18,766 bases of DNA from a virus. The stretch is taken from UHGV virus genome UHGV-0147920; one strand, 5' to 3'. Both the position numbers and the translations under genes were made by a program. This document shows, in pieces, positions 1,397 through 18,716 of this stretch (its first letter is position 1; each line of letters begins with the position of its first letter). Below the pieces are notes generated by a model that worked only from the letters and a program-made list of their open reading frames with translations, made no database searches and had not been told where the DNA came from.

Positions 1397-1599
1397 TGAA
1401 GACCTTTGCGCTACAGGGCGACACGCTCGACGCCATTTGTGTCCGGTATTACGGGCGCACTGAGGGCGTGGTCGAAGCCGTGCTCGCCGCAAATCCGGGA
1501 CTGGCTGAACTGGGTGCGGTGCTGCCACACGGCACCGCCGTCGAACTGCCCGACGTTCAGACCGCGCCCGTGGCTGAAACTGTCAATCTGTGGGAGTAA
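1396..1599 (+). CDS. X: tail protein X (LysM-like), P2 gpX-like
   Basis: 67 aa from ATG 1396 (MKTFALQGDTLDAICVRYYGRTEGVVE...) to TAA 1597-1599. The longer ORF-track frame from 1327 overlaps L and has no start signal. Length and position match P2 X. Confidence 0.8.
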   Translation: MKTFALQGDTLDAICVRYYGRTEGVVEAVLAANPGLAELGAVLPHGTAVELPDVQTAPVAETVNLWE

Positions 1600-1602
1600 C
1601 GC

Positions 1603-2381: not shown

Positions 2382-2395
2382 ACGGAGTAAACACC

Positions 2396-2821
2396 ATGAA
2401 GAAATTATCCCTTTCACTGATGCTGAACGTGTCGCTGGCGCTGATGCTGGCACTGTCCCTGATTTACCCGCAGAGCGTGGCCGTCAGTTTTGTCGCCGCC
2501 TGGGCGATTCTGGCGACGGTTATCTGTGTGGTTGCCGGTGGTGTCGGCGTGTATGCCACGGAGTATGTACTGGAACGCTACGGGCGGGAGCTGCCGCCGG
2601 AATCGCTGGCCGTGAAGATTGTCACGGCGCTGTTTTTGCAGCCGGTGCCGTGGCGCAGGCGGTCAGTGGCTCTGGTGGTGATGGTGGCGACGTTTATCTC
2701 GCTGGTCGCTGCCGGGTGGATTTTTACTGCGCTGATTTATCTCGTGGCGTCACTGTTTTTCCGGCTGATACGTACGGCCTGCCGTCAGCGTTTTGAGGGG
2801 CGGGAACCATGTCAAAACTGA
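2396..2821 (+). CDS. lysA: lysis accessory membrane protein LysA (P2-like)
   Basis: 141-aa multi-pass hydrophobic protein (four predicted TM stretches) with GGAG at 2384-2387. Position between endolysin and spanins matches P2 lysA. Confidence 0.8.
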   Translation: MKKLSLSLMLNVSLALMLALSLIYPQSVAVSFVAAWAILATVICVVAGGVGVYATEYVLERYGRELPPESLAVKIVTALFLQPVPWRRRSVALVVMVATFISLVAAGWIFTALIYLVASLFFRLIRTACRQRFEGREPCQN

Positions 2822-3234
2822 TGATTGTGCTGGTTGTGTTGTTATCACTGGCGGTGGCGGGGCTGTTTCTGGCGAAGCATGAAAACGCCAGACTGCGCGC
2901 CTCACTGGACAGGGCGAACAACGTCGCCAGCGGGCAGCAGACGACCATCACCATGCTGAAAAACCAGCTTCATGTTGCCCTTACCAGGGCAGACAAAAAC
3001 GAGCTGGCGCAGGTGGCACTGCGTCAGGAGCTGGAGAACGCCGCGAAGCGTGAAGCACAGCGCGAGAAAACCATCACGAGGTTACTCAATGAAAACGAAG
3101 ATTTTCGCCGCTGGTACGGTGCTGACCTGCCTGATGCTGTGCGCCGGTTGCACCAGCGCCCGGCCTGCGCCGACGCCAGTGATTGTCCACAACGCCTGCC
3201 CGAAAGTGAGTCTTTGCCCGATGCCGGGCAGTGA
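2809..3234 (+). CDS. lysB: i-spanin (Rz-like), P2 LysB-like
   Basis: 141 aa with an N-terminal TM anchor (LMIVLVVLLSLAVAGLFLA) followed by a charged, coiled-coil-like periplasmic region. Start overlaps the lysA stop. Confidence 0.8.
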   Translation: MSKLMIVLVVLLSLAVAGLFLAKHENARLRASLDRANNVASGQQTTITMLKNQLHVALTRADKNELAQVALRQELENAAKREAQREKTITRLLNENEDFRRWYGADLPDAVRRLHQRPACADASDCPQRLPESESLPDAGQ

Positions 3235-3379: not shown

Positions 3380-3809
3380 TGCCGTCACGGTGCTGAAAAC
3401 CAGCCCCGAGATGCTGCGGATATTCGTGGATAACGGGAGTATTGCCTCCACACTGGCGACGTCGCTGTCATTCGAAAAGCGTTACACGCTCAACGTGATT
3501 GTGACCGACTTTACCGGTGATTTTGACCTGCTCATCGTGCCGGTGCTGGCGTGGCTGCGGGAAAATCAGCCAGACATCATGACCACCGACGCAGGCCAGA
3601 AAAAGGGCTTCACGTTTTATGCAGACATCAACAATGACAGCAGCTTTGATATCAGCATCAGTCTGATGCTGACCGAGCGCACGCTGGTCAGTGAGGTGGA
3701 CGGTGCGCTGCATGTGAAGAATATCCCGGAACCTCCGCCGCCGGAGCCGGTCACCCGCCCGGTGGAGCTTTATATCAATGGTGAACTGGTGAGCAAGTGG
3801 GATGAATGA
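3342..3809 (+). CDS. R: tail completion protein R (P2 gpR-like)
   Basis: 155 aa; length, position after the lysis cassette and overlap with S (ATGAATGA) match P2 R. Confidence 0.85.
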   Translation: MLKPDSLRRALTDAVTVLKTSPEMLRIFVDNGSIASTLATSLSFEKRYTLNVIVTDFTGDFDLLIVPVLAWLRENQPDIMTTDAGQKKGFTFYADINNDSSFDISISLMLTERTLVSEVDGALHVKNIPEPPPPEPVTRPVELYINGELVSKWDE

Positions 3810-4254
3810 GTTTAAGCGTTTTGAAGACCGGCTGACCGGACTTATTGAATCGCTGTCACCGTCAGGGCGTCGGCGACTGAGTGCCGAACTGGCGAAACGT
3901 CTGCGGCAGAGTCAGCAGCGCCGGGTGATGGCACAGAAAGCCCCGGATGGCACACCCTATGCGCCACGCCAGCAGCAGAGCGCCAGAAAAAAGACTGGCC
4001 GTGTTAAGCGAAAAATGTTTGCGAAACTTATCACCAGTCGTTTTTTGCATATCCGCGCCAGCCCGGAACAGGCATCAATGGAGTTTTACGGCGGGAAGTC
4101 ACCGAAAATCGCCAGTGTGCATCAGTTCGGTCTGTCGGAAGAAAACCGGAAAGACGGTAAGAAAATTGATTATCCGGCGCGTCCTCTGCTCGGCTTTACC
4201 GGTGAGGATGTGCAGATGATTGAAGAGATTATCCTGGCTCACCTTGAGCGTTAG
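3802..4254 (+). CDS. S: tail completion protein S (P2 gpS-like)
   Basis: 150 aa from ATG 3802 to TAG 4252-4254; basic central region; follows R with a 4-nt overlap as in P2. Confidence 0.85.
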   Translation: MNEFKRFEDRLTGLIESLSPSGRRRLSAELAKRLRQSQQRRVMAQKAPDGTPYAPRQQQSARKKTGRVKRKMFAKLITSRFLHIRASPEQASMEFYGGKSPKIASVHQFGLSEENRKDGKKIDYPARPLLGFTGEDVQMIEEIILAHLER

Positions 4255-4283
4255 TTTTATCCAGGCAGAGGCTGATGCGCAAT

Positions 4284-4320
4284 TAAACATTGAGCGGCTG
4301 TGCAGGTCGCTCAATGTTTA
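4284..4320. terminator. putative bidirectional terminator hairpin between convergent S and the minus-strand cargo gene
   Basis: Perfect 12-bp inverted repeat AAACATTGAGCG (4285-4296) / CGCTCAATGTTT (4308-4319), extendable by a T-A pair at 4284/4320, with an 11-nt loop. It lies exactly between the two convergent stop codons (4254 and 4326). The U-tract is short on both strands. Confidence 0.45.
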
Positions 4321-4325
4321 GAGGA

Positions 4326-5111
4326 TTATGAGTGGTTTTTATTTGATGATTTGTATTCTACAACTTTTTTATTGGCGTAAAGGAATTTTGTATATGACAG
4401 AAGTATAACCAGACCTGAAGTGAAATAGACGAGGGATATTATTAATAATGTTTTTCTGTGGCTGTTATTATCTTTAATCTCCTGACTTAACCATTCGGAG
4501 TCCTCCTCGTTTAGCTGTAAGAGCTTATTGCAGGCGATTGCAGGAAGTGTGTCTGTTACAAAAGTGTTCTGCAGTCTCTTGCAATCGGCAATGCTAAAAG
4601 CTTTATAGAACTTATCTGTTTTATTGTCGGAGAACAAAAGAACCTTGTCATTATAAACATGGTACATCATATTTTTATATGGTATGGCTATAGCATCCTC
4701 TACTATGGCAGATTGCTCGTTGTGTATGCAACATGCGAAGGTAATATAAAGAATTCCGGCCAGGACTGCACTCATTGTTTTTGTGATGCATGGCGGTTCT
4801 GTTATGTCTCCCCAGAAGCGAGTAAGGAAAAAATCCGATGTTTTTAGTTTTCCATCAATCAACCCCTGCTGTATCATTTTCACATCTTTGATGCCTGATA
4901 CATTGATTCCGTTAATTATTTTAAATAGTTGAATGTCGCGCCACTCGCGGTCCAGTCTTTTTAATTTTTTATCTGAATATCCAAATTTGAAATAATGTGC
5001 AATAAGCCTCATAAGGTTACTTTTACCAAAGCTAAAAAATGCTAATACTACAAAGACCAAAAGATACAAGACGATTAGCTCCCACACATTAGTCACATTA
5101 TAGCTGACCAT
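4326..5111 (-). CDS. hypothetical low-GC membrane protein (cargo/moron at the S-V junction, P2 orf30 position)
   Basis: 261-aa ORF on the minus strand with a strong AAGGAG ribosome-binding site about 6 nt upstream of ATG (rc of 5118-5123). About 32-35% G+C in sampled lines versus about 58% in flanking tail genes. Predicted TM helices at residues ~10-28, ~113-131 and ~220-240. No family assigned. Confidence 0.75.
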   Translation of the reverse strand: MVSYNVTNVWELIVLYLLVFVVLAFFSFGKSNLMRLIAHYFKFGYSDKKLKRLDREWRDIQLFKIINGINVSGIKDVKMIQQGLIDGKLKTSDFFLTRFWGDITEPPCITKTMSAVLAGILYITFACCIHNEQSAIVEDAIAIPYKNMMYHVYNDKVLLFSDNKTDKFYKAFSIADCKRLQNTFVTDTLPAIACNKLLQLNEEDSEWLSQEIKDNNSHRKTLLIISLVYFTSGLVILLSYTKFLYANKKVVEYKSSNKNHS

Positions 5112-5126
5112 TACGCTCTCCTTGAA

Positions 5127-5146
5127 TGTTGTCTGGTGGTTCTACA
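5127..5146 (+). promoter_or_regulatory. candidate late-promoter activator (Ogr-type) dyad upstream of V
   Basis: TGTTGT-N11-ACA (TGT 5130-5132, ACA 5144-5146) in the 83-bp gap between divergent genes. The same TGTTGT-N11-AC architecture recurs upstream of FI. Spacing is 11, not the 12 I recall for P2 Ogr boxes, and the V ATG is only about 57 bp from the dyad centre. Confidence 0.25.
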
Positions 5147-5194
5147 AATGAATCCAGATAGCATAACTTTTATATATTGTGCAATCTCACATGC

Positions 5195-5830
5195 ATGAAC
5201 ACTCTCGCAAATATTCAGGAACTCGCGCGCGCACTGCGCAACATGATTCGTACTGGCCTTGTCGTCGAAACCGACCTTAACGCCGGTCGCTGCCGTGTGC
5301 AGACCGGCGGCATGTGCACCGACTGGCTTCAGTGGCTGACACATCGTGCCGGGCGTTCGCGCACATGGTGGGCACCTTCCGTGGGGGAACAGGTGCTGAT
5401 TCTGGCCGTGGGCGGTGAACTCGACACGGCGTTCGTTCTGCCGGGGATTTATTCCGGCGATAACCCCGCGCCGTCTGCGTCGGCGGATGCCCTGCACATA
5501 CGTTTCCCTGACGGGGCGGTGATTGAGTATGAACCTGAAACCAGTGCACTGATGGTAAGCGGAATTAAAACGGCCAGCGTGACGGCTTCTGATTCTGTTA
5601 CCGCCACGGTGCCGGTAGTCATGGTGAAAGCGTCAACCCGCATCACCCTGGACACCCCGGAGGTGGTCTGCACCAACAGACTGATTACCGGCACGCTGGA
5701 AGTACAGAAGGGCGGGACGATGCGCGGCAACATTGAACACACCGGCGGTGAACTCTCATCAAACGGTAAGGTACTGCATACCCATAAACACCCCGGCGAC
5801 AGCGGCGGCACAACCGGGGGACCTCTATGA
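5195..5830 (+). CDS. V: baseplate spike/assembly protein V (P2 gpV-like)
   Basis: 211 aa from ATG 5195 (MNTLANIQELARALRNMIRTG...); the ORF-track TTG at 5177 was not used. Gly-rich C-terminus; overlaps the W start (ATGA). Confidence 0.9.
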   Translation: MNTLANIQELARALRNMIRTGLVVETDLNAGRCRVQTGGMCTDWLQWLTHRAGRSRTWWAPSVGEQVLILAVGGELDTAFVLPGIYSGDNPAPSASADALHIRFPDGAVIEYEPETSALMVSGIKTASVTASDSVTATVPVVMVKASTRITLDTPEVVCTNRLITGTLEVQKGGTMRGNIEHTGGELSSNGKVLHTHKHPGDSGGTTGGPL

Positions 5831-7620: not shown

Positions 7621-9939
7621 ATGAGCACAAAATTCAAAACCGTTATCACCACTGCCGGTGTAGCAAAGCTGGCAGCGGCAACCGCACCGGGAGGGCGGAA
7701 GGTCAACATTACCACGATGGCCGTCGGGGATGGCGGTGGTAAATTGCCTGTCCCGGATGCCGGACAGACCGGGCTTATCCATGAAGTCTGGCGACATACG
7801 CTGAACAAAATCAGCCAGGACAAACGAAACAGTAATTATATTATCGCAGAGCTGGTTATTCCGCCGGAGGTGGGCGGTTTCTGGATGCGTGAGCTTGGCC
7901 TGTACGATGATGCGGGAACGTTAATTGCCGTGGCGAACATGGCCGAAAGTTATAAGCCAGCTCTTGCCGAAGGCTCAGGGCGTTCGCAGACCTGTCGCAT
8001 GGTCATCATCGTCAGCAGTGTGGCCTCGGTGGAGCTGACCATTGACACCACAACGGTGATGGCGACACAGGATTACGTTGATGACAAAATTGCAGAGCAC
8101 GAACAGTCACGACGTCACCCGGACGCCTCGCTGACCGCAAAAGGTTTTACTCAGTTAAGCAGTGCGACCAACAGCACGTCTGAAACACTGGCCGCAACGC
8201 CGAAAGCGGTAAAGGCCGCCTATGACCTTGCTAACGGGAAATATACCGCACAGGACGCTACCACAGCGCGAAAAGGTCTTGTCCAGCTCAGTAGTGCCAC
8301 CAACAGCACGTCTGAAACGCTTGCGGCAACGCCAAAGGCGGTTAAGACAGCGTATGACCTTGCTAACGGGAAATACACTGCACAGGACGCCACTACAGCG
8401 CGAAAAGGTCTTGTCCAGCTCAGTAGCGCCACCAACAGCGATTCTGAAACGCTTGCGGCAACACCAAAGGCGGTTAAGACAGCGTATGACCTTGCTAACG
8501 GGAAATACACTGCACAGGATGCCACCACGGCGCGAAAAGGTCTTGTCCAGCTCAGTAGCGCCACCAACAGTGATTCTGAAACCCTCGCGGCAACGCCAAA
8601 AGCAGTGAAGTCTGCCTATGACAATGCTGAAAAACGTCTTCAGAAAGATCAGAACGGTGCGGATATTCCGGGAAAGGATACCTTCACGAAAAATATCGGT
8701 GCCTGTCGTGCTTATAGCGGCGCTTTGAGCACTGAAGCCGGAAACTGGACAACCGCTCAGTTTATTGAATGGCTGGATTCCCGTGGTGCATTTAATCATC
8801 CGTACTGGATGTGCAAAGGCTCATGGTCATATGCAAATAACAAAATCATTACGGATACCGGATGTGGTGATATCCACCTGGCTGGTTGTGTCGTCGAGGT
8901 CATGGGAACTAAATCTGCAATCACTATCCGAGTGACCACGCCGACAACATCAAGTGGTGGCGGTACAACCAGCGCGCAATTCACTTACATTAATCATGGG
9001 GACGGCTACTCCCCCGGCTGGCGTCGTGACTGGAATCGTCAGGGCGACTCAATGACCGGAACGATTAATCAGGATGGCGGAAGCCAGAATGCCTATATGT
9101 CTACGGCCTTATGTTCAGGCACCAGAGGCGGCAAAAAATATCTCAGAAAGTTTCGTGGTGGAGAAGGAGACACTATCTGGCATGAAACAGTACAGGGCGG
9201 GGTAATTCGCTGGGCGACAGGAAACTATGACGCTCAGGAAGAATTATCACTCAGCTCCGCTTATGGTCTCCGTTCAAGAGGTGAGATTACATCACTCAGT
9301 GCTAATGGTCTGCGCATTGCTTATGGCAATTATGGATTCTTTATCAGGAATGATGGCGGCAGCACATATTTAATGCTGACGGCCTCTGGCGATAAATTTG
9401 GGACATGGAACGGTTTAAGACCGCTGACTATCAATAACGCCAATGGCGGAGTGTCAATGGGGCATGGCCTGAGTGTTACAGGTGATATTGTCTCAAGTAC
9501 CAAAGTACGTGCCGGTAGCGGGAAAAAGTTCACGGTCAGCAGCAGCAATACATCCACGAAGGAAGCCGCATTCAATTTGTGGGGAAACTCAAGTCGTCCT
9601 GTGGTGGCTGAATTAGGTGATGATGCAGGCTGGCATTTTTACAGTCAGAGAAATACAGATAACAGCATCACTTTTGCTGTTAACGGGCAGGTATCACCAT
9701 CTAACTATAGTAATTTTGATTCACGCTATGTCCGGGATATCCGGCTTGGTGGTGCTGCCACATACAAACCTGCGAACAATGGCATGACATGGACACATCA
9801 GGCACCGTCCGGGTGTGTATATTCCGGCATTATTGTTCAGGATACCGGCTCAAACTCTGCCGATAACATTGGTGGCATATATTACAGACCGGTGCAGAAA
9901 TACATTAACGGGACATGGTATAACGTAGCGCAGGTATAA
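7621..9939 (+). CDS. H: tail fibre protein H (P2 gpH-like, with expanded internal repeats and a divergent distal domain)
   Basis: 772 aa. The N-terminal ~170 aa (MSTKFKTVITTAGVAKLAAATAPGG...) matches the virion-attachment part of P2 H as I recall it. It is followed by 44-aa tandem repeats and a lower-GC distal domain ending ...YINGTWYNVAQV. Confidence 0.9.
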   Translation: MSTKFKTVITTAGVAKLAAATAPGGRKVNITTMAVGDGGGKLPVPDAGQTGLIHEVWRHTLNKISQDKRNSNYIIAELVIPPEVGGFWMRELGLYDDAGTLIAVANMAESYKPALAEGSGRSQTCRMVIIVSSVASVELTIDTTTVMATQDYVDDKIAEHEQSRRHPDASLTAKGFTQLSSATNSTSETLAATPKAVKAAYDLANGKYTAQDATTARKGLVQLSSATNSTSETLAATPKAVKTAYDLANGKYTAQDATTARKGLVQLSSATNSDSETLAATPKAVKTAYDLANGKYTAQDATTARKGLVQLSSATNSDSETLAATPKAVKSAYDNAEKRLQKDQNGADIPGKDTFTKNIGACRAYSGALSTEAGNWTTAQFIEWLDSRGAFNHPYWMCKGSWSYANNKIITDTGCGDIHLAGCVVEVMGTKSAITIRVTTPTTSSGGGTTSAQFTYINHGDGYSPGWRRDWNRQGDSMTGTINQDGGSQNAYMSTALCSGTRGGKKYLRKFRGGEGDTIWHETVQGGVIRWATGNYDAQEELSLSSAYGLRSRGEITSLSANGLRIAYGNYGFFIRNDGGSTYLMLTASGDKFGTWNGLRPLTINNANGGVSMGHGLSVTGDIVSSTKVRAGSGKKFTVSSSNTSTKEAAFNLWGNSSRPVVAELGDDAGWHFYSQRNTDNSITFAVNGQVSPSNYSNFDSRYVRDIRLGGAATYKPANNGMTWTHQAPSGCVYSGIIVQDTGSNSADNIGGIYYRPVQKYINGTWYNVAQV
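8143..8625 (+). repeat. 132-bp in-frame tandem repeat array (about 3.6 copies) inside tail fibre gene H
   Basis: Copies start at 8143, 8275, 8407 and 8539 (exact 132-nt period). Each encodes G(F/L)(T/V)QLSSATNS(T/D)SETLAATPKAVK(A/T)AYDLANGKYTAQDATTARK. Copies 2 and 3 differ at only a handful of positions. Confidence 0.9.
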
Positions 9940-9942
9940 TTT

Positions 9943-10470
9943 ATGCAGCATTTGATAAATATAACGGCGGGTAATCCAAAAACAGTTGAACAATATCAAT
10001 TGACAAAGGACTTTGATGTTGTCTGGTTTTTTACAGAAGATGGTAAGAACTGGTACGAAGAACAAAAGTATTTTGCTGATGACACGATAAAAATAGCGTA
10101 CGACAAAGATAATATCATCCGCTATGTGGAAAAGGATGTGACAGCTATCAGACCGGATGGATTAAGTGTTGTTGAAGTGCCGGATATTACTGCTAACCGA
10201 CGGGCGGACATTTCAGGGAACTGGATGTTTAAGGACGGTACAGTGATTAAACGAATTTATACGGCAGAGGAATTGCAGCAGCAGGCAGAAAATCGGAAAG
10301 CCAGACTTCTTGCAGATGCTGAATCCGTGATTTTGCCGCTGGAGCGCGCTGTCAGGCTGAATATGGCAACAGATGAGGAGCGCAGTCGACTGGAGGCATG
10401 GGAACGCTACAGTGTTCTGGTCAGTCGTGTGGATCCTGCAAATCCTGAATGGCCGGAAATGCCGCAATAA
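9943..10470 (+). CDS. G: tail fibre assembly chaperone G (Tfa family)
   Basis: 175 aa immediately after H. The N-terminal two-thirds are low-GC and the C-terminal ~60 aa are high-GC, the usual Tfa mosaic pattern. Confidence 0.85.
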
Positions 10471-10552
10471 GTTGTATGAGCTCTGGTGTGAGCTTACATA
10501 TCTATGGCACAGAGTAAAGCCTAATCTGAGAGTCCGCTCTGTGCCAGAAGTA

Positions 10553-10580
10553 GACGCACAAGGTGGGCGTGTCTTTTTCT
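10553..10580 (+). terminator. possible intrinsic terminator closing the V-W-J-I-H-G transcription unit
   Basis: Imperfect GC-rich stem (GACGCAC ... GCGTGTC with one wobble and one mismatch) followed by TCTTTTTCT at 10572-10580, about 85 nt after the G stop. The stem is weak. Confidence 0.3.
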
Positions 10581-10584
10581 TAAG

Positions 10585-12003
10585 CTACATCGGGCTCTTA
10601 TATGGGGAATGAGAGTTTTTGAAACGCGGTTCTTCATGCTTCGGACTGTAAGTTCTTGCATGATTATCTATCACAACTTTACTTCCAAGAATATCTCGAG
10701 CTTCTCCTAACGACCACACAGTAGAAAGATCATTAGTCAAATTTCGATAGAGAGCACGAAACCCCTTGGGTTTTTTAAGATCATATAAGAAATCAGGAAC
10801 TTTAACTTTAAAATTAAAGGTCGGTAGTTTCGGAAGGGAATTAATAGCCGCAACAGTATTGTATACATGTACAAGCTTAGTTACAGGTACACCTTGTCTA
10901 GTCTTGAGCCCATACTTAGTTCGAATATAATCTGATTCTTTCGATACTTCAGTAAGCAATGCTCTTACTGACTTATTAGCTTGAGGCAATTCATTTTCAT
11001 CAAACAAGCGCTTTATTTCTCGCATTTTCTCACGGGCCCTTACAAATTCGTTGTTGTCCCTTATGTTATAAGCAGCTTCAACAATACAACTTGGATCACC
11101 AGTTTCTTTTGCGAGCCATGCCGAAAATAAAGGAAGCGAAGTTGCTGTTGCTACAGCTTTACCACCAGAATGAATATCAATGAGATCATGACTTAACGAA
11201 GTGGAAAAGTTTTCTACAATATGTTTAGCATAGTCAAAACCATACTGACAGTTTTGGCTTAAATATGTCTGTTGATACGCCTGACGTAATGGATATAAAA
11301 AAGTATCTGCTTGAAGGTACTTAGCTGTGAGAGAATAAAATACTGCCCGATTAGCCAGCCATACAAGCGAAGCCACGAATGCTTTGATTGCATCTGATGC
11401 TTCACCAGCAGATGTGCCATCCCCCCATTTTGCTCCGGGAACTTTGTACCCCTTGCGAATAGGGTTGCCAAATCGATCGAGGAGTTCAACATCGCCATTT
11501 GTTCTATTACCAGACTCAGCAGCATCACGCAGTTCTGAAAAAATGGCAGCAGCAATGTTACCATATTTTTCAAACTCCTTACCTCCATCAGATAAGTTCT
11601 TCAGTGTTAGATGATAAACACTTGAACTAATGTCCCATGTACATATGATATGTGTCTGAAGAAGTTCAATTAGTTTTTTAAAATCGTCATTAACAAATGT
11701 TCCACCACGAATTTTAGGTTTCAATGCATCAGATATTTTTTTTGCTTCACTTTCAATTTCATCCAACCCATATTGTGCTTTATCAAGAAATAATATCTCT
11801 CTGAAACTTGAAATCCTACTCTCACGGTACTCTGGAATATAATCATCAACCGCGATAACGCGATCATAGAACAAAATAGACTGTATATAGTTCTCAAATG
11901 CTATTATGTCTGTATCTACTGAGTCCTTCGATCTTGTTTTTACTTTCCCCTCGATTCTTTGGACTGCAGTTAGAGTTGAATTATCAATCAGTGCGTATGT
12001 CAT
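10585..12003 (-). CDS. hypothetical low-GC cargo protein at the G-FI (Z/fun) junction; candidate single-gene anti-phage/exclusion function
   Basis: Uninterrupted 472-aa ORF on the minus strand (ATG at rc 12001-12003, stop at rc 10585-10587) with AAGGAA about 6 nt upstream. About 32-37% G+C in sampled lines versus about 58% backbone. No TM segments, no clear Walker A and no R-x(4-6)-H motif. Flanked by 115-bp and 410-bp non-coding spacers. Confidence 0.8.
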   Translation of the reverse strand: MTYALIDNSTLTAVQRIEGKVKTRSKDSVDTDIIAFENYIQSILFYDRVIAVDDYIPEYRESRISSFREILFLDKAQYGLDEIESEAKKISDALKPKIRGGTFVNDDFKKLIELLQTHIICTWDISSSVYHLTLKNLSDGGKEFEKYGNIAAAIFSELRDAAESGNRTNGDVELLDRFGNPIRKGYKVPGAKWGDGTSAGEASDAIKAFVASLVWLANRAVFYSLTAKYLQADTFLYPLRQAYQQTYLSQNCQYGFDYAKHIVENFSTSLSHDLIDIHSGGKAVATATSLPLFSAWLAKETGDPSCIVEAAYNIRDNNEFVRAREKMREIKRLFDENELPQANKSVRALLTEVSKESDYIRTKYGLKTRQGVPVTKLVHVYNTVAAINSLPKLPTFNFKVKVPDFLYDLKKPKGFRALYRNLTNDLSTVWSLGEARDILGSKVVIDNHARTYSPKHEEPRFKNSHSPYKSPM

Positions 12004-12031
12004 TTACATTCCTTAAATAAAAAACATTAAT

Positions 12032-12074
12032 GGTTGCTCCAAAAATACTAGCAACCTTATTTCAGTGAAGTCAA
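12032..12074 (-). promoter_or_regulatory. candidate sigma70-type promoter with overlapping palindromic operator-like element for the 472-aa cargo gene
   Basis: On the minus strand: TTGACT (rc of 12069-12074), 18-nt spacer, TAGTAT (rc of 12045-12050). A 7-bp inverted repeat GGTTGCT (12032-12038) / AGCAACC (12050-12056), spaced 11 nt, overlaps the -10 and the predicted transcript start. Confidence 0.3.
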
Positions 12075-12289
12075 TTTTTTAACATTAATCATTTACACAC
12101 GCTTGAAAAGTGATCGCTGAAAATGGCATTCACTACATTATCAAAGTTCCCATCGAAGATAATCGAAATTTTTCCCGGTAGCAGATATCGTGAGATTTAA
12201 CGCTTTTCGCTCATAGCAGGCTGTCAGATTTGATAGCGTTTGGGCTATGTAAACTGTCAGTCGGAAAATGAGTGTGTACAAATCAGGAC

Positions 12290-12318
12290 ATGCGGGCGAA
12301 TTGCCCGCATTTTCTTTA
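12290..12318 (+). terminator. rho-independent terminator-like hairpin (+ strand) at the right boundary of the cargo island
   Basis: 8-bp GC-rich stem ATGCGGGC (12290-12297) / GCCCGCAT (12303-12310) with a 5-nt loop GAATT, followed directly by TTTCTTTAT (12311-12319). No + strand gene lies upstream of it. Confidence 0.55.
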
Positions 12319-12320
12319 TC

Positions 12321-12340
12321 TGTTGTTTCATCCACTGACC
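12321..12340 (+). promoter_or_regulatory. candidate late-promoter activator (Ogr-type) dyad upstream of FI
   Basis: TGTTGT-N11-ACC (TGT 12324-12326, ACC 12338-12340), centred about 82 bp upstream of the FI ATG and just downstream of the terminator hairpin. Same architecture as the element upstream of V; one mismatch to the TGT...ACA half-sites. Confidence 0.3.
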
Positions 12341-12413
12341 AGCCAGGTCAAATAGCGTCTCATGCACTGCCCAACAGAAAATAGTTGCACCCATTAACCA
12401 CGGAGTTAAACGG

Positions 12414-13604
12414 ATGAGTGACTATCATCATGGCGTGCAGGTGCTGGAGATTAACGACGGCACCCGCGTCATTTCCACCGTATCCACTGCCATTGTCGGC
12501 ATGGTCTGTACGGCCAGCGATGCGGATGCGGAATCCTTCCCCCTCAATAAACCGGTGCTGATTACCAATGTGCAGAGTGCAATTGCAAAGGCCGGTAAAA
12601 AAGGCACGCTGGCGGCATCGTTGCAGGCCATCGCCGACCAGTCAAAACCGGTCACCGTTGTTGTGCGCGTGGAGGACGGCACCGGCGACGACGAAGAAAC
12701 GAAACTTGCGCAGACCGTTTCCAATATCATCGGCACCACCGACGAAAACGGTCAGTACACCGGACTGAAAGCCCTGCTGGCGGCGGAGTCGGTAACCGGT
12801 GTTAAACCGCGTATTCTCGGTGTGCCGGGACTGGATACCAAAGAGGTGGCTGTTGCACTGGCATCCGTCTGTCAGAAGCTGCGCGCTTTCGGATATATCA
12901 GCGCATGGGGCTGTAAGACCATTTCCGAGGTGAAAGCCTACCGCCAGAATTTCAGCCAGCGTGAGCTGATGGTCATCTGGCCGGATTTCCTCGCATGGGA
13001 TACGGTCACCAGTACCACCGCCACCGCGTATGCCACCGCCCGTGCGCTGGGTCTGCGCGCTAAAATCGACCAGGAGCAGGGCTGGCATAAAACGCTGTCC
13101 AACGTCGGGGTAAACGGTGTTACCGGCATCAGCGCATCTGTATTCTGGGATTTGCAGGAGTCCGGCACCGATGCTGACCTGCTTAACGAGTCAGGCGTCA
13201 CTACGCTGATTCGCCGCGACGGTTTCCGATTCTGGGGTAACCGTACCTGCTCTGATGACCCGCTGTTCCTCTTTGAAAACTACACCCGCACCGCGCAGGT
13301 GATGGCCGACACGATGGCTGAGGCGCACATGTGGGCGGTGGACAAGCCCATCACCGCAACGCTGATTCGCGACATCGTTGACGGCATCAATGCCAAATTC
13401 CGTGAGCTGAAAACAAACGGCTATATCGTGGATGCGACCTGCTGGTTCAGCGAAGAATCCAACGATGCGGAAACCCTCAAGGCCGGAAAACTGTATATCG
13501 ACTACGACTATACACCGGTGCCTCCTCTTGAAAACCTGACCCTGCGCCAGCGTATTACCGATAAATACCTGGCAAATCTGGTCACCTTGGTTAACAGCAA
13601 TTAA
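12414..13604 (+). CDS. FI: contractile tail sheath protein FI (P2 gpFI-like)
   Basis: 396 aa with GGAG at 12402-12405; length and position match P2 FI. Confidence 0.9.
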   Translation: MSDYHHGVQVLEINDGTRVISTVSTAIVGMVCTASDADAESFPLNKPVLITNVQSAIAKAGKKGTLAASLQAIADQSKPVTVVVRVEDGTGDDEETKLAQTVSNIIGTTDENGQYTGLKALLAAESVTGVKPRILGVPGLDTKEVAVALASVCQKLRAFGYISAWGCKTISEVKAYRQNFSQRELMVIWPDFLAWDTVTSTTATAYATARALGLRAKIDQEQGWHKTLSNVGVNGVTGISASVFWDLQESGTDADLLNESGVTTLIRRDGFRFWGNRTCSDDPLFLFENYTRTAQVMADTMAEAHMWAVDKPITATLIRDIVDGINAKFRELKTNGYIVDATCWFSEESNDAETLKAGKLYIDYDYTPVPPLENLTLRQRITDKYLANLVTLVNSN

Positions 13605-13616
13605 GGAGCCTGACCG

Positions 13617-14135
13617 ATGGCAATGCCGCGCAAACTCAAGTTAATGAACGTCTTTCTGAACGGCTACAGCTATCAGGGCGTCGCGAAGTCCGTCACGCTA
13701 CCAAAACTGACCCGTAAGCTCGAAAACTATCGCGGTGCGGGGATGAACGGCAGCGCACCGGTAGACCTCGGCCTTGATGACGATGCGCTGTCAATGGAGT
13801 GGTCGCTCGGGGGCTTCCCGGATTCGGTTATCTGGGAGCTTTACGCCGCAACCGGTGTGGATGCCGTGCCGATTCGTTTTGCAGGCTCTTACCAGCGCGA
13901 CGATACCGGCGAAACGGTGGCCGTTGAAGTGGTCATGCGTGGACGTCAGAAAGAAATCGACACCGGCGAGGGGAAACAGGGAGAAGACACCGAGTCGAAA
14001 ATCTCCGTGGTCTGCACCTATTTCCGGCTGACGATGGACGGTAAGGAGCTGGTCGAAATCGACACCATCAACATGATTGAGAAGGTGAACGGCGTCGACC
14101 GGCTGGAGCAACACCGCCGCAATATCGGCCTGTGA
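13617..14135 (+). CDS. FII: tail tube protein FII (P2 gpFII-like)
   Basis: 172 aa with AAGGAG at 13603-13608; follows the sheath gene as in all P2-like tails. Confidence 0.9.
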   Translation: MAMPRKLKLMNVFLNGYSYQGVAKSVTLPKLTRKLENYRGAGMNGSAPVDLGLDDDALSMEWSLGGFPDSVIWELYAATGVDAVPIRFAGSYQRDDTGETVAVEVVMRGRQKEIDTGEGKQGEDTESKISVVCTYFRLTMDGKELVEIDTINMIEKVNGVDRLEQHRRNIGL

Positions 14136-14191
14136 TTCTCATCCGGTCAGCCTGGCTGACCGGTTAACCCCGATTCAGAAGTGAGAAAACC

Positions 14192-14467
14192 ATGAACAAA
14201 GAAAACGTCATTACCCTGGACAATCCGGTCAAACGTGGTGAGCAGGTTATCGAACAGGTCACGCTGATGAAACCTAACGCCGGGACGCTGCGCGGTGTCA
14301 GTCTGGCTGCGGTCGCGAACTCCGAAGTCGATGCACTGATTAAAGTGCTGCCGCGCATGACGGCACCGATGCTGACCGAACAGGAAGTTGCCGCGCTGGA
14401 ACTGCCTGACCTTGTGGCGCTGGCCGGTAAGGTGGTCGGTTTTTTGTCGCCGAACTCGGTGCAGTGA
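14192..14467 (+). CDS. E: tail assembly chaperone E (P2 gpE-like)
   Basis: 91 aa; ends shortly after a T-TTT-TTG slippery heptamer; position between tube and tape-measure genes. Confidence 0.85.
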   Translation: MNKENVITLDNPVKRGEQVIEQVTLMKPNAGTLRGVSLAAVANSEVDALIKVLPRMTAPMLTEQEVAALELPDLVALAGKVVGFLSPNSVQ

Positions 14468-14619
14468 CGTTTCCGAAAAATCTCTCGGTCGATGACCTGA
14501 TGGCGGATGTGGCAGTTGTATTTCACTGGCCGCCATCAGAACTGTATCCCATGAGCCTGACCGAACTCATCACATGGCGCGAAAAGGCGCTCAGGCGAAG
14601 CGGAAACACGAATGAGTAA
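14192..14619 (+). CDS. E': tail assembly chaperone E+E' (product of -1 programmed ribosomal frameshift)
   Basis: After the slippery site TTTTTTG (14440-14446) the -1 frame stays open for 57 codons (VAELGAVTFPKNLSVDDLMADVAVVFHWPP...RRSGNTNE) to TAA 14617-14619, overlapping the T start. The predicted fusion is about 142 aa, as in P2. Confidence 0.75.
14440..14446 (+). other. -1 programmed ribosomal frameshift slippery heptamer (T_TTT_TTG)
   Basis: X_XXY_YYZ-type heptamer in the E zero frame (codons GGT-TTT-TTG at 14438-14446). The -1 frame downstream is open to 14619, whereas the zero frame stops at 14467. Confidence 0.7.
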
Positions 14620-17059
14620 CAATGTAAAATTACAGGTATTGCTCAGGGCTGTTGACCAGGCATCCCGCCCGTTTAAATCCATCCGCACAGCGAGTAAGTC
14701 GCTGTCGGGGAATATCCGGGAAACACAAAAATCACTGCGCGAGCTGAACGGTCAGGCATCCCGTATTGAGGGATTCCGCAAGACCAGTGCGCAGCTTGCC
14801 GTGACTGGTCATGCACTTGAAAAGGCACGGCAGGAGGCCGAAGCCCTTGCCACACAGTTTAAAAACACTGAACGTCCGACCCGTGCTCAGGCGAAAGTGC
14901 TGGAATCCGCAAAGCGTGCGGCGGAGGACTTACAGGCGAAATATAACCGCCTGACGGATTCTGTTAAACGCCAGCAGCGGGAACTGGCCGCTGTGGGAAT
15001 TAATACCCGCAATCTTGCACATGATGAGCAGGGGCTGAAAAACCGTATCAGTGAAACCACCGCACAGCTTAACCGGCAGCGTGACGCGCTGGCGCGTGTC
15101 AGTGCGCAACAGGCAAAACTTAACGCAGTAAAACAGCGTTATCAGGCAGGAAAGGAGCTGGCAGGAAATATGGCCTCGGTGGGCGCTGCCGGTGTGGGGA
15201 TTGCGGCAGCGGGAACGATGGCCGGAGTTAAGCTGCTGATGCCCGGCTATGAGTTTGCGCAGAAAAACTCAGAATTGCAGGCCGTGCTGGGTGTGGCAAA
15301 AGACTCCGCCGAAATGACCGCACTCCGCAAGCAGGCGCGCCAGCTCGGTGACAACACCGCCGCCTCAGCGGATGATGCGGCCGGTGCACAGATTATCATT
15401 GCGAAAGCGGGTGGAGATGCTGCAGCTATTCAGGCGGCAACGCCGGTCACGCTGAATATGGCACTGGCAAACCAGCGGTCGATGGAAGAAAACGCGCAAC
15501 TGTTGCTGGGGACTAAGGCATCCTTTCAACTGTCAAATGATGATGTCAGCCATGTGGGCGACGTGTTGTCGGCAACGATGAATAAGTCGGCGGCTGATTT
15601 TCAGGGACTCAGTGATGCACTGACTTACCTCGGTCCGGTTGCGAGGACGGCAGGTGTAAGTCTTGAGCAGGCAGCGGCCATGACAGGTGTGCTGCATGAC
15701 AATAACATCAGGGGGTCAATGGCGGGGACGGGGGGCAGTGCCGTTGTCACCCGATTACAGGCACCGACAGGAAAAGCATGGGATGCACTCAAAGAGCTTG
15801 GCGTTAAAACCTCGGACAAAAAGGGAAATATGCGTCCGTTGTTCACCATTCTGAAAGAGATTCAGGCCAGCTTTGATAAACACAAGTTGGGAACGTCTCA
15901 GAAGGGGGAATACCTTAAAACCATTTTTGGTGAGGAAGCCCTGAAATCAGCGAACGTTTTACTGGCAGCGGCAGCAAGCGGAAAACTGGATACGCTGACC
16001 GCCACGCTGAAAGCCTCGGACGGTAAAACGGAAGAGCTGGTTAAAATCATGCAGGATAACCTCGGCGGTGACTTTAAGGAGTTTCAGTCCGCTTATGAGG
16101 CGGTGGGGACTGACCTGTTTGACCAGCAGGAAGGCGCACTGCGTAAGCTCACGCAGACGGCCACAAAGTATGTGTTAAAACTCGACGGCTGGATACAGAA
16201 AAACAAATCACTGGCGTCAACCATCGGCATCATTGTCGGTGGTGCACTGGCGCTGACTGGTGTCATCGGTGCCATTGGTCTTGTAGCCTGGCCGGTTATC
16301 ACCGGCATCAATGCCATTATCGCGGCAGCAGGCGCAATGGGGGCAATCTTCACGACGGTTGGCAGTGCTGTTATGACGGCCATCGGGGCGATTAGCTGGC
16401 CGGTTGTGGCCGTGGTGGCCGCCATTGTCGCCGGTGCGTTGCTTATCCGTAAATACTGGGAGCCTGTCAGCGCATTCTTTGGCGGTGTGGTGGAAGGGCT
16501 GAAAGCGGCATTTGCGCCGGTGGGGGAACTGTTCACGCCACTTAAACCGGTTTTTGACTGGCTGGGTGAAAAGTTACAGGCCGCGTGGCAGTGGTTTAAA
16601 AATCTGATTGCCCCGGTCAAAGCCACCCGGGACACCCTGAACCGTTGCCGTGACACGGGCGTCATGTTCGGGCAGGCACTGGCTGACGCGCTGATGATGC
16701 CGCTTAATGCGTTCAACAAACTGCGCAGCGGTATTGACTGGGTACTGGAAAAACTCGGTGTTATCAACAAAGAGTCAGACACACTTGACCAGACCGCCGC
16801 AAGGACTAATGCCGCCACGTATGGCAGCGGTGGTTATATTCCGGCGACCAGCTCTTATGCAGGCTATCAGGCTTATCAGCCGGTAACGGCACCGGCTGGC
16901 CGCTCTTATGTGGACCAGAGTAAAAACGAATATCACATCAGCCTGACGGGTGGTACTGCGCCGGGGACACAGCTTGACCGCCAGTTACAGGATGCGCTCG
17001 AAAAATACGAGCGGGATAAACGTGCGCGCGCCCGTGCCAGCATGATGCATGACGGTTAA
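14612..17059 (+). CDS. T: tail tape measure protein T (P2 gpT-like)
   Basis: 815 aa; alpha-helical, Gln/Ala/Lys/Arg-rich N-terminal region and a long Gly/Ala-rich hydrophobic segment (...IGIIVGGALALTGVIGAIGLVAWPVITGINAIIAAAGAMGAIFTTVGSAVMTAIGAISWPVV...). Same length as P2 T. Confidence 0.9.
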   Translation: MSNNVKLQVLLRAVDQASRPFKSIRTASKSLSGNIRETQKSLRELNGQASRIEGFRKTSAQLAVTGHALEKARQEAEALATQFKNTERPTRAQAKVLESAKRAAEDLQAKYNRLTDSVKRQQRELAAVGINTRNLAHDEQGLKNRISETTAQLNRQRDALARVSAQQAKLNAVKQRYQAGKELAGNMASVGAAGVGIAAAGTMAGVKLLMPGYEFAQKNSELQAVLGVAKDSAEMTALRKQARQLGDNTAASADDAAGAQIIIAKAGGDAAAIQAATPVTLNMALANQRSMEENAQLLLGTKASFQLSNDDVSHVGDVLSATMNKSAADFQGLSDALTYLGPVARTAGVSLEQAAAMTGVLHDNNIRGSMAGTGGSAVVTRLQAPTGKAWDALKELGVKTSDKKGNMRPLFTILKEIQASFDKHKLGTSQKGEYLKTIFGEEALKSANVLLAAAASGKLDTLTATLKASDGKTEELVKIMQDNLGGDFKEFQSAYEAVGTDLFDQQEGALRKLTQTATKYVLKLDGWIQKNKSLASTIGIIVGGALALTGVIGAIGLVAWPVITGINAIIAAAGAMGAIFTTVGSAVMTAIGAISWPVVAVVAAIVAGALLIRKYWEPVSAFFGGVVEGLKAAFAPVGELFTPLKPVFDWLGEKLQAAWQWFKNLIAPVKATRDTLNRCRDTGVMFGQALADALMMPLNAFNKLRSGIDWVLEKLGVINKESDTLDQTAARTNAATYGSGGYIPATSSYAGYQAYQPVTAPAGRSYVDQSKNEYHISLTGGTAPGTQLDRQLQDALEKYERDKRARARASMMHDG

Positions 17060-17073: not shown

Positions 17074-17553
17074 ATGATGCTCGCGTTAGGTATGTTTGTT
17101 TTTATGCGCCAGACGCTGCCACACCAGACCATGCAGCGTGAATCAGATTATCGCTGGCCGTCAAATTCCCGTATCGGTAAACGGGATGCCTTTCAGTTTC
17201 TCGGTGTGGGTGAGGAAAACATTACGCTTGCCGGCGTGCTTTATCCCGAACTGACCGGCGGGAAGCTGACGATGACCACGCTCAGGCTGATGGCAGAGGA
17301 AGGCCGGGCGTGGCCGTTGCTGGATGGCACCGGCATGATTTACGGCATGTATGTCATCAGCAGGGTGAGTGAAACAGGGAGTATTTTCTTTGCAGACGGC
17401 ACACCCCGGAAAATTGATTTTACGCTGTCGCTCACCCGCGTTGATGAATCACTGGCCGCGCTTTATGGCGATATCGGTAAACAGGCGGAATCGCTCATCG
17501 GTAAGGCTGGTAGTATGGCGACCAGATTCACGGGTATGACGGGGGCGGGATAA
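17074..17553 (+). CDS. U: tail protein U (P2 gpU-like)
   Basis: 159 aa with AAGGAGG at 17058-17064; position after T; stop overlaps the D start (TAATG). Confidence 0.9.
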   Translation: MMLALGMFVFMRQTLPHQTMQRESDYRWPSNSRIGKRDAFQFLGVGEENITLAGVLYPELTGGKLTMTTLRLMAEEGRAWPLLDGTGMIYGMYVISRVSETGSIFFADGTPRKIDFTLSLTRVDESLAALYGDIGKQAESLIGKAGSMATRFTGMTGAG

Positions 17554-18716
17554 TGCTGGATGCGCTGACATTTGATGCAGGCAGTACGCTGACGCCGGAT
17601 TACATGCTGATGCTCGACAGCAGGGATATTACCGGCAATATCAGCGACCGTCTGATGAGCATGACCCTGACGGATAACCGGGGCTTTGAGGCTGACCAGC
17701 TTGATATTGAACTGAACGACGCCGACGGGCAGGTAGGGCTACCGGTTCGTGGCGCTGTCCTGACGGTGTATATCGGCTGGAAAGGTTTTGCCCTGGTATG
17801 CAAAGGGAAATTTACCGTTGATGAGGTTGAACACCGGGGCGCACCGGATGTGGTCTCCATCCGCGCCCGGAGTGCAGATTTTCGCGGGACGCTCAATTCC
17901 CGCCGGGAAGGCTCCTGGCATGACACCACGCTCGGTGCGATTGTTGAGGCGATAGCCACCCGTAACAGGCTGGAAGCCAGTGTCGCTCCGTCACTGGCCG
18001 GAATTAAAATCCCGCACATCGACCAGTCGCAGGAGTCTGATGCGAAATTCCTGACCCGTCTTGCAGAACGCAACGGCGGAGAGGTGTCGGTAAAAATGGG
18101 AAAACTGTTGTTTCTCAAAGCGGGGCAGGGGGTGACGGCCAGCGGTAAAAAAATCCCGCAGATTACCATCACCCGCAGCGATGGCGACCGTCACCATTTT
18201 GCGATTGCTGACCGTGGAGCCTACACCGGCGTAACGGCAAAGTGGCTACACACCAAAGACCCGAAGCCGCAAAAGCAGAAGGTAAAACTGAAACGCAAAA
18301 AGAAAGAGAAACACCTGCGCGCACTGGAGCACCCGAAAGCAAAACCGGTCACGCAGAAGAAAGCGCCAAAAGTACCGGAAGGGCGCGAAGGTGAATACAT
18401 GGCCGGTGAGGCTGACAACGTTTTTGCCCTGACTACGGTATATGCCACGAAAGCGCAGGCTATGCGCGCCGCTCAGGCGAAGTGGGATAAACTGCAACGG
18501 GGCGTTGCGGAGTTCTCCATCAGCCTGGCTACCGGTCGGGCAGATATTTACACGGAAACACCGGTTAAAGTGTCAGGCTTTAAGCGCGTCATAGATGAGC
18601 AGGACTGGACCATCACTAAGGTGACACATTGTCTCAATAATAGCGGCTTCACGACGTCCTTGGAGCTTGAGGTCAGGCTTTCTGATGTGGAGTACGAAAC
18701 AGAAGATGATGAGTGA
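17553..18716 (+). CDS. D: tail protein D (P2 gpD-like)
   Basis: 387 aa with an internal Lys-rich low-complexity stretch (KDPKPQKQKVKLKRKKKEKH...); last gene of the FI-D tail unit; same length as P2 D. Confidence 0.9.
   Translation: MLDALTFDAGSTLTPDYMLMLDSRDITGNISDRLMSMTLTDNRGFEADQLDIELNDADGQVGLPVRGAVLTVYIGWKGFALVCKGKFTVDEVEHRGAPDVVSIRARSADFRGTLNSRREGSWHDTTLGAIVEAIATRNRLEASVAPSLAGIKIPHIDQSQESDAKFLTRLAERNGGEVSVKMGKLLFLKAGQGVTASGKKIPQITITRSDGDRHHFAIADRGAYTGVTAKWLHTKDPKPQKQKVKLKRKKKEKHLRALEHPKAKPVTQKKAPKVPEGREGEYMAGEADNVFALTTVYATKAQAMRAAQAKWDKLQRGVAEFSISLATGRADIYTETPVKVSGFKRVIDEQDWTITKVTHCLNNSGFTTSLELEVRLSDVEYETEDDE

Follow-up and report, generated by a model that had tools for sequence, protein, structure and literature searches.

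What is the function of a single AT-rich gene that lies against the direction of transcription amid the tail genes of a prophage? This question was raised by a 472-aa ORF in an 18,766-nt stretch of DNA from the virus genome UHGV-0147920 (hereafter the window, meaning the whole stretch analyzed). The ORF is the sole long one between the tail fibre assembly and tail sheath genes of a P2-like E. coli prophage, a position that corresponds to the Z/fun slot of P2. Fun is a single-protein exclusion factor, and P2 Fun/Z is the T5 exclusion protein. We analyzed the locus, the protein family, its genomic contexts and the predicted structure, and weighed the roles the gene may have.

Cargo segment in the Z/fun slot

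The ORF starts with ATG, and the preliminary description of the locus had both its position and its orientation opposite to the late operons exactly right (Table 1). The same description placed it in a 1.9-kb island at 10471–12413. The island is real, but this span is the entire G–FI intergenic interval and includes P2 backbone, approximately 85 nt on the left (10471 to ~10556) and approximately 213 nt on the right (12201–12413). Both backbone stretches are kept in prophages with other cargo. The foreign segment proper runs roughly from 10,490/10,570 to 12,215/12,235. The G+C content is 0.381 for the gene (GC3 0.273) and 0.545 for the remainder of the window, and 400-nt windows yielded values of 0.34–0.42 inside the island versus 0.54–0.62 across most late genes. 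The contrast suggested earlier (32–37% versus 58%) is real, with slightly exaggerated figures. The island is foreign in origin and constitutes horizontally acquired cargo.

Table 1. Coordinates of the features in and around the G–FI interval of the window
Feature	Position	Strand	Remarks
Tail fibre assembly protein (P2 gene G), left backbone neighbour	9943..10470	+	phrog_136, E 2.9e-79
3' flank of the cargo gene	10506..10584	.	two hairpins, read from the sequence
Hairpin with 9-bp stem, GGCACAGAG...CTCTGTGCC	10506-10545		in the 3' flank of the cargo gene
Left arm of the 22-nt imperfect inverted repeat bracketing the cargo slot, AATCTGAGAGTCCGCTCTGTGC	10523..10544	+	
Weak hairpin, then TTTTTCTT on the + strand	10553-10573		in the 3' flank of the cargo gene
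Cargo gene, 472-aa ORF	10585..12003	-	RefSeq relative WP_000220361.1 'hypothetical protein'; phrog_13435, unknown function
Mostly helical region, codons 141-472	10588..11583	-	candidate sensor or regulatory domain
N-terminal alpha/beta domain, codons 1-140	11584..12003	-	candidate catalytic or ligand-binding domain
Upstream DNA travelling with the cargo gene	12004..12234	-	83-90% identical in Lonsdalea, Pantoea and Serratia copies
Ribosome-binding site AAGGAA	12009-12014	-	5 nt before ATG
Putative sigma-70-like site, TTGACT, 18 nt, TG-n-TAGTAT	12074..12045	-	
Right arm of the 22-nt imperfect inverted repeat bracketing the cargo slot, AATCTGACAGCCTGCTATGAGC	12209..12230	-	
Intrinsic-terminator-like site in the conserved right flank	12290-12310	+	
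Tail sheath protein (P2 gene FI), right backbone neighbour	12414..13604	+	phrog_23

Among 5426 complete E. coli genomes, the flanks of the slot occurred in 1017, and just seven of these had the 472-aa gene, always in a single copy. Examples of natural lysogens with the gene are E. coli 89-3156 and TOE3. These counts bear out the proposal that the gene was acquired horizontally as cargo in a variable slot. The same pair of 22-nt repeats is found around other cargo in P2, P2-EC58 and three further E. coli prophages, and the annotation of AJ512683 labels these repeats 'left/right inverted repeat'. Published work treats the P2 tail-gene slot as a hotspot of accessory and defence genes (PMC13586616 section 24; bioRxiv 10.1101/2024.10.15.618418), which, together with our flank and cargo counts, agrees with the claim of a variable slot with anti-phage cargo. 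According to the cited literature, non-defence cargo also occurs in the slot, including lysogenic conversion genes and tail-fibre swaps. The question whether the gene alternates with known defence genes in the slot received a qualified answer: three of six other cargo genes matched PADLOC models (PD-T7-4, Argonaute-associated REase and DRT-associated TM protein), and all three matches were partial. The 472-aa gene resembles P2 Z/fun cargo in its G–FI position, in the repeats, and in being AT-rich, single-gene and independently transcribed, whereas its family spans several bacterial phyla. A direct comparison with the SMEK-domain protein, which is also cargo of this slot, revealed no similarity, and kinship was rejected.

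The upstream DNA moves with the gene. Enterobacterales share a discrete unit consisting of the gene, approximately 215 nt upstream and 17–96 nt downstream, and the Lonsdalea, Pantoea and Serratia copies of the gene and its upstream DNA are found in mutually unrelated contexts. The 3' flank is partly common to the Lonsdalea and Pantoea copies. The ribosome-binding site attributed to the gene earlier was located, and a sigma-70-like site may serve as its promoter; the promoter-like hexamers are poorly conserved among the four copies of the upstream DNA compared. Considered as an RNA element, the upstream region had no match in Rfam and folded no better than its shuffles (z = +0.64). The two hairpins of the 3' flank probably terminate transcription in both directions between gene G and the cargo gene, as judged from the sequence; a simple terminator scan made no call at them.

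A conserved family with wide and sporadic distribution

Scans of the 472-aa protein against Pfam, NCBIfam and PADLOC gave zero matches, and none of the 5027 models of PADLOC-DB 2.0.0 was matched even at E ≤ 10. When 64 diverse family members were scanned against the three libraries, noise alone was obtained; for PADLOC-DB 2.0.0, this amounted to scattered single matches, all with E ≥ 0.012. Sequence searches of the PDB with full-length and N-terminal profiles were empty, and Foldseek found nothing for the protein in the PDB. Thus far the protein deserves the label "uncharacterised" given to it in the preliminary description: it lies outside every described family in the libraries searched (Pfam, NCBIfam, PADLOC). 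A tblastn search detected no copy among 50,697 deposited phage genomes. Despite this absence, PHROGs lists the family as phrog_13435, with the annotation 'unknown function'. No paper was found by searching the literature with family accessions and locus tags, and none of the accessions of this protein cluster appears in the DefensePredictor supplements.

The family is compact and uniform in length, at about 460–472 aa. All 324 representatives have approximately 455–485 residues or are fragments, and no fusions occur. Ungapped comparison with four orthologues (78–91% amino acid identity; the pairs L030 and L013 were left out as mis-registered) yielded dN/dS values of 0.05–0.17, and the ORF is therefore a genuine gene under strong purifying selection. 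The E. coli protein has 72–73% identity to the Desulfotalea and Nitrospira copies and 70% to the Vibrio vulnificus orthologue. The gene had a lower G+C content than its flanks at all 24 family loci. Among 23 orthologues, the start codon is TTG in 11 and GTG in one. The family is found in Proteobacteria, Nitrospira, Cyanobacteria, Verrucomicrobia, Leptospirales and Clostridium, a distribution that is wide and sporadic.

All-against-all BLAST of the neighbours in 21 genomes revealed no conserved partner gene, and a test for a type II toxin–antitoxin arrangement found no neighbour family common to different loci. The gene is autonomous as a single-gene unit. Several of its contexts place it in mobile or defence-related company. 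In V. vulnificus the gene forms a single integron cassette with attC-like repeats on either side, the Serratia copy is ICE cargo, and the Pantoea copy lies in an integrative element that also holds an OLD-like AAA_15-TOPRIM gene. In Pectobacterium, the gene is found in an island with HEPN_Toprim_N/RiboL-PSP, CcdAB and CTD1-MComp1-SMC. The Desulfotalea copy adjoins MksBEF, the Cyanobium copy adjoins a 1490-aa TIR-CHAT-STAND-TPR protein, and the Tenderia copy has IS elements on its flanks. The Clostridium kluyveri copy is plasmid-borne, with a recombinase and HTH repressors as neighbours. Housekeeping neighbourhoods were seen in Acinetobacter, Nitrospira, Methylorubrum and several MAG loci (L007, L016, L018, L020). 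The raw counts were approximately nine contexts with defence or mobile-element company and approximately eight with housekeeping genes.

Predicted architecture of the protein

The AlphaFold model (pLDDT 82.9, pTM 0.81) divides the protein into an N-terminal alpha/beta domain and a mostly helical region. In the model, the N-terminal domain begins with b1 (3–6), helices 8–17 and 26–45, strand 48–52 and helix 57–66, followed by strand 71–73, helix 80–92, strand 97–99, helix 106–114 and a b-hairpin at 119–137. This domain holds the majority of the charged residues that are conserved across the family (D7, N8, R16, D32, E37, D47, D53, D54, R63 and D124), and the acidic ones lie at the ends of strands or within helix 2. 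Conserved residues of the helical region include W215, R219, Y223, P238, R240, P291, R324 and G433; no structural or sequence relative of this region was found. Members of the gamma/beta/delta-proteobacterial subfamily invariably end in H-S-x-[FYW]-K-S-P-M-stop. Mean-field DCA, aimed at placing this tail, gave a signal dominated by N-terminal gap artefacts.

A motif scan confirmed the reported lack of Walker A and found no GxGxxG either. The protein can still be called soluble, because its best 19-residue hydropathy window reaches only 1.28. The statement that R-x(4-6)-H is missing proved literally wrong, as the C-terminal tail contains RTYSPKH (450) and RFKNSH (460). Since neither arginine is conserved in the family, the protein has no conserved HEPN motif, and identity as a HEPN ribonuclease was rejected.

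The resemblance of the N-terminal domain to PIN nucleases would be one of fold. At the profile level, there was no PIN match at E ≤ 10 in Pfam among the 64 family members, and hhalign against VapC returned probabilities of 0.05–0.3%. The acidic residues of the 472-aa protein (D7, D32, E37, D47, D53/54, D124) are spaced differently from those of Shigella VapC, which we take to be D7, E42, D98 and E119. Mutant VapC chains at residues 7 and 98 are present in the PDB. Unlike VapC, the protein has no antitoxin partner, and its N-terminal domain continues into a helical region of 330 residues that is unknown in VapC toxins.

Candidate roles of the cargo gene

From the location of the gene, its mobile and defence-island contexts elsewhere and the properties of the family, we infer a role in defence. 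The island would be a self-contained module of one gene that moves horizontally, resides in the Z/fun slot and is expressed from its own upstream region, opposite to the late operons. Its product would shield the lysogen through exclusion of other phages or mobile elements, acting alone as an immune or abortive-infection protein. The effector may be the N-terminal domain, with a PIN-like fold and an acidic/arginine cluster (D7, D32, E37, D47, D53, D54, D124, R16, R63), acting probably as a metal-dependent phosphodiesterase (nuclease). The helical C-terminal part, with the conserved tail, would restrain it until the protein senses a cue of infection. Taken jointly, these steps form our preferred explanation, which we hold tentatively, at somewhat less than an even chance.

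We counted in its favour the Z/fun slot, the autonomy of the gene, its defence and mobile company elsewhere, the dN/dS values with the signs of transfer, and the TTG/GTG starts (12 of 23 orthologues) as a low-expression signature. Counted against it were the housekeeping nature of about half of the contexts, the absence from the DefensePredictor supplements and the non-defence cargo of the slot.

Characterized single-gene defence proteins of P2 and P4 hotspots or from selections, such as the DUF4238 protein of Rousset et al. 2022 and the PD-T4, PD-T7 and PD-lambda systems of Vassallo et al. 2022, likewise consist of one sporadic, partnerless gene carried as prophage hotspot cargo (PMC9122126; PMC9519451). 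They also share the own-promoter layout, the promoter being putative here. In contrast, their PADLOC models matched none of the 64 family members above noise. A second comparison is offered by the chromosomal integrons of Vibrio, where approximately 10% of the V. cholerae N16961 cassettes are anti-phage (bioRxiv 10.1101/2024.07.02.601686). The V. vulnificus orthologue is likewise a single integron cassette; however, the tested set comes from N16961, and no tie leads from the 472-aa family to a tested cassette.

The cargo may instead serve host fitness or lysogenic conversion unrelated to immunity, for example through a Rossmann-like (HUP/USP-like) N-terminal domain handling a nucleotide or small molecule. 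We consider this unlikely. HUP matches left the top of the list with a better model while PIN domains remained, both nucleotide-binding motifs are missing, and the sporadic spread, the low G+C content and the carriage by integron, ICE and prophage suit conflict genes better than metabolism. A selfish stabilization or toxin-like element, or a counter-defence factor, would serve its mobile element rather than the host. Copies on the prophage, ICEs, integron and plasmid and beside TA genes are in line with such a role, as are the TTG starts, which suggest that expression is kept low, as with toxic proteins. Against this, there is no antitoxin-like conserved neighbour and no conserved structured RNA upstream, P2 anti-defence genes are rare with none reported in the G–FI slot (PMC13586616 section 24), and solitary chromosomal copies outside mobile elements are intact and under purifying selection. 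This makes the selfish role quite unlikely.

The solitary gene, its sporadic insertion as a discrete Enterobacterales unit, the acidic alpha/beta domain and the inverted repeats at the island borders would also suit a mobility enzyme, that is, an unrecognised transposase, recombinase or homing nuclease moving its own gene. The repeats, however, belong to the P2 slot and bracket other cargo too, whereas the other insertion sites share no terminal repeats and the unit boundaries vary by locus. Besides, the seven E. coli carriers have one copy each, the Vibrio copy is an ordinary cassette moved by the integron integrase, and the predicted fold is not RNase-H-like; we regard a mobility enzyme as improbable. 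The identical slot had also led to the suggestion that the protein is a diverged homologue of Fun/Z. The P2 slot has one ORF of at least 80 aa, with 299 aa, and the suggestion failed on comparison with it (best BLASTP E = 0.32 over 44 residues). Length and orientation differ as well, and the tblastn search of the phage records was empty. The probability of this homology is close to nil.

Returning to the defence reading, a more far-reaching version of it is possible, though we consider it doubtful. The protein would be the founding member of an undescribed family of single-protein immune effectors of about 472 aa, in which a helical sensor of new fold is paired with a PIN-like nuclease that has diverged strongly. 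Its conserved N- and C-termini would lock the enzyme until infection. As a minimal cassette, it would move among prophage hotspots, integrons, ICEs and chromosomes in six or more bacterial phyla.

New immune systems are known to come from prophage hotspots, and those that consist of a single protein lend themselves most readily to dissection and reuse. The family described here is nameless in Pfam, NCBIfam and PADLOC, has a predicted fold that is largely unmatched, and is unusually conserved in length and in sequence between E. coli and Desulfotalea or Nitrospira. A putative compact native expression unit of approximately 1.7 kb is present in E. coli lysogens. If the defence role is true, the gene would add a new sensor–effector architecture and assign a function to cassettes in integrons and ICEs; if the gene is not defensive, it would be a widespread mobile gene of another role.

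Exchangeable cargo in the G-FI slot

The late genes of a P2-like prophage fill the window, with the baseplate genes between the terminase small subunit and tail fibre H (see table). The preliminary description had placed an AT-rich, opposite-strand 472-aa gene between G and FI. This gene was confirmed as the sole long ORF there, with a G+C content of 0.381 (GC3 0.273) against 0.545 in the remaining window, and its own ribosome-binding site was found as AAGGAA, 5 nt ahead of the ATG start. The hexamers of an upstream sigma-70-like site were not conserved in the Lonsdalea, Pantoea, and Serratia copies; the upstream region matched no Rfam family and folded no better than shuffles. The conserved right flank contains a hairpin and T-run resembling an intrinsic terminator, about 100 nt upstream of the sheath gene, where it would presumably stop H-G operon transcription before the FI late promoter.

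Features of the window and their coordinates
Feature	Position	Strand
Terminase small subunit	50-787	
S, tail completion	3802-4254	
Second AT-rich island	~4100-5200	
261-aa ORF of second island	4326-5111	-
V, baseplate	5177-5830	
H, tail fibre	7621-9939	
G, fibre assembly	9943-10470	
Inverted repeat, left arm (22 nt, imperfect)	10523-10544	+
472-aa cargo ORF	10585-12003	opposite
Last eight codons of cargo ORF	10588-10611	
Sigma-70-like site	12074..12045	
Inverted repeat, right arm (22 nt, imperfect)	12209-12230	-
Terminator-like hairpin	12290-12310	+
FI, sheath	12414-13604	
Tube and tape measure	14612-17059	
gpD	17553-18716	

The slot proved as variable as had been proposed. When 10471-12413 was compared by megablast with 5426 complete E. 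coli genomes, its flanks (about 85 nt left and 213 nt right) were found in 1017 and the entire island in only seven, each at least 99.3% identical, chromosomal, and in one copy. In strain 89-3156, the gene product is WP_000220361.1, annotated 'hypothetical protein'; the P2-like prophage around it adjoins yegQ and is otherwise syntenic. Among deposited phage genomes, 67 matched the flanks alone, and tblastn detected the protein in none of 50,697 phage records. The P2 tail-gene (Z/fun) hotspot has been described as mixed, with both accessory and defence content (PMC13586616 section 24; bioRxiv 10.1101/2024.10.15.618418); the tests of Rousset et al. covered the old/tin hotspot only (PMC9122126). 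Of six alternative cargo genes from the slot, three gave partial PADLOC matches (PD-T7-4, an Argonaute-associated REase N-domain, and a DRT-associated TM protein), and the other three, the P2 ORF among them, gave none. An uncharacterised gene in this hotspot is expected in itself.

The inverted repeat brackets all G-FI cargo examined (the window and five further loci, L027, L034, L040, L041, and L042). The pair surrounds differing cargo in P2, P2-EC58, and three further prophages of E. coli, and is annotated as 'left/right inverted repeat' in GenBank AJ512683. The DNA that the window shares with the non-P2 copies (at 90% identity in Lonsdalea, 86% in Pantoea, and 83% in Serratia) extends from about 12214-12234 to 10568-10489; it comprises the gene with ~215 nt of upstream and 17-96 nt of downstream sequence. 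The non-P2 Pantoea element keeps degenerate forms of both arms alongside the gene, and was therefore probably exchanged with a P2-type slot. These sequences hint at cargo swapping by recombination at the repeats. In the Lonsdalea copy, homology apparently stops within each arm.

The window holds a second foreign island (G+C 0.36-0.45) in the position of the P2 orf30 slot. Its 261-aa ORF had no Pfam, NCBIfam, or PADLOC match and belongs to phrog_2407, of unknown function. This island occurs in 460 of the 5426 E. coli genomes and is missing from the otherwise syntenic 89-3156 prophage.

A single-gene family across several phyla

The initial search yielded 282 relatives, nearly all of 472-474 aa with 50-99% identity, and every one 'hypothetical', from Escherichia/Shigella, Pantoea, Serratia, Pectobacterium, Acinetobacter, Halomonas, Vibrio, Psychrobacter, Desulfotalea, Citrifermentans, and Tenderia. 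When 1.84 billion representatives were searched exhaustively with a profile, 324 members emerged, each ~455-485 aa or a fragment, with no fusion to other domains. The family also has a second subfamily (~459 aa) in Alphaproteobacteria, members from Nitrospira, Cyanobium, Verrucomicrobia, and Leptospirales MAGs, and a Clostridium kluyveri plasmid protein, also of 472 aa, at 38.5% identity. The protein had been called uncharacterised, and profile searches bore this out: neither it nor 64 diverse members, scanned singly, matched Pfam, NCBIfam (June 2026), or PADLOC 2.0.0, and its PHROGs entry, phrog_13435, is of unknown function. The suggested homology to Fun was rejected. Family accessions and locus tags were not found in searchable papers, nor the accessions in the DefensePredictor supplements.

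All-against-all BLAST of the neighbouring genes predicted up to 6 kb away in 21 genomes revealed no family shared between loci besides the gene, which is a single-gene unit. Outside the P2 slot, mobile or defence contexts were a Pantoea integrative element (integrase, OLD-like AAA_15-TOPRIM protein, relaxase), a Pectobacterium island (HEPN_Toprim_N/RiboL-PSP, CcdAB, TacA), a Serratia ICE (between TraC and TraU), and a Vibrio vulnificus integron cassette flanked by 65-nt attC-like repeats. The gene adjoins MksBEF in Desulfotalea, a TIR-CHAT-STAND-TPR giant in Cyanobium, a TrwC remnant in Citrifermentans, and a recombinase with HTH repressors on the C. kluyveri plasmid; IS elements lie on either side in Tenderia. 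Acinetobacter, Nitrospira, Methylorubrum, and several MAG loci showed housekeeping neighbours only. Between two Pectobacterium brasiliense assemblies (L024 and L025), the adjacent island varies (12022-16536 of L024): beyond the 3' end of the orthologue, a CTD1-MComp1-SMC_N three-gene module and CcdAB in one strain stand where the other has lysine/ornithine decarboxylase genes. The Pantoea element (L023) also has adjoining QueC and Nuc_deoxyrib_tr-domain proteins (13958-15901), possibly a 7-deazaguanine DNA modification module.

The gene is under purifying constraint by dN/dS (0.05-0.17), and its G+C content was below that of its flanks in 24/24 loci, by up to 23 points. TTG starts 11 of 23 orthologues and GTG one (L003-L007, L009-L013, L024, L026), which hints at deliberately weak translation. 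The N-terminal extensions annotated in entries P0035 and P0063 were unsupported by alignment. Disruption in most relatives would have spoken against a defence role; we found few damaged copies (frameshifts in L017, L020, and L021, a fragment in L022, truncations in Shigella and a Pseudomonas megaplasmid), and most were intact. The P. aeruginosa megaplasmid remnant (NZ_CP095921.1, 5007-6008, 333 aa) matches residues 132-472 only, at 32.5% identity; its neighbours are IS elements and the resistance genes mph(E)/msr(E). The same record contains a second matching site.

Conserved residues and predicted fold

Across 132 sequences (filtered to below 70% identity with one another; 20-69% identical to the query), R16, G19, D32, E37, R63, W123, L132, Y223, P238, R240, P291, R324, and G433 were at least 97% conserved; D7, N8, T10, L44, F45, D47, D53, D54, Y55, F67, L115, S128, L137, W215, R219, L236, F293, and P471 reached 90-97%. 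Residues 1-63 therefore contain 11 conserved polar residues. D124 was invariant in an N-terminal alignment of 19 sequences, alpha subfamily included. Conservation extends to both ends of the protein. The N-terminus reads M-[TS]-Y-A-L-I-D-N. The main-subfamily C-terminus, H-S-x-[FYW]-K-S-P-M-stop, was invariant across 40 sequences with identity down to 51%; the alphaproteobacterial subfamily has P-A-x-L instead.

AlphaFold gave a pLDDT of 62 with a shallow alignment, and 82.9 (pTM 0.81) with 64 diverse sequences. In the model, a beta-alpha-beta domain at the N-terminus (~1-140) precedes ~330 mostly helical residues, which end in a confidently placed tail with short strands at 455-457 and 469-471. 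Foldseek found no match in the PDB (best E 0.1, TM up to 0.33).

Candidate function and significance

The gene's location and autonomy, its pattern of transfer, and the selection on it are all consistent with prophage cargo that encodes a one-protein immune or exclusion factor, and we judge a defence role somewhat better than an even prospect. The conserved acidic and Arg residues concentrated at the strand ends of the modelled, possibly PIN-like domain suggest a metal-dependent phosphodiesterase. The N-terminal alpha/beta domain would then be the effector, and the helical region and conserved tail would be candidate sensing and autoinhibition parts, because a solitary toxic enzyme needs inbuilt control. 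Sequence-level tests of the PIN link were all negative (hhalign against Shigella VapC, probability ~0; Pfam and PDB profile searches, empty), and the joint claim of defence with a nuclease-type effector falls slightly short of even. Cargo with a nucleotide-binding domain and no immune role is unlikely, and a selfish stabilisation or counter-defence factor somewhat more so; that the gene encodes a self-mobilising enzyme seems very improbable.

As a candidate single-gene defence in a prophage hotspot, the gene is of a kind already known. Three features lift it above routine: the compact, highly conserved family spans several phyla with no entry in the domain and defence libraries searched, its predicted fold is largely unmatched, and its native expression unit is ready-made.
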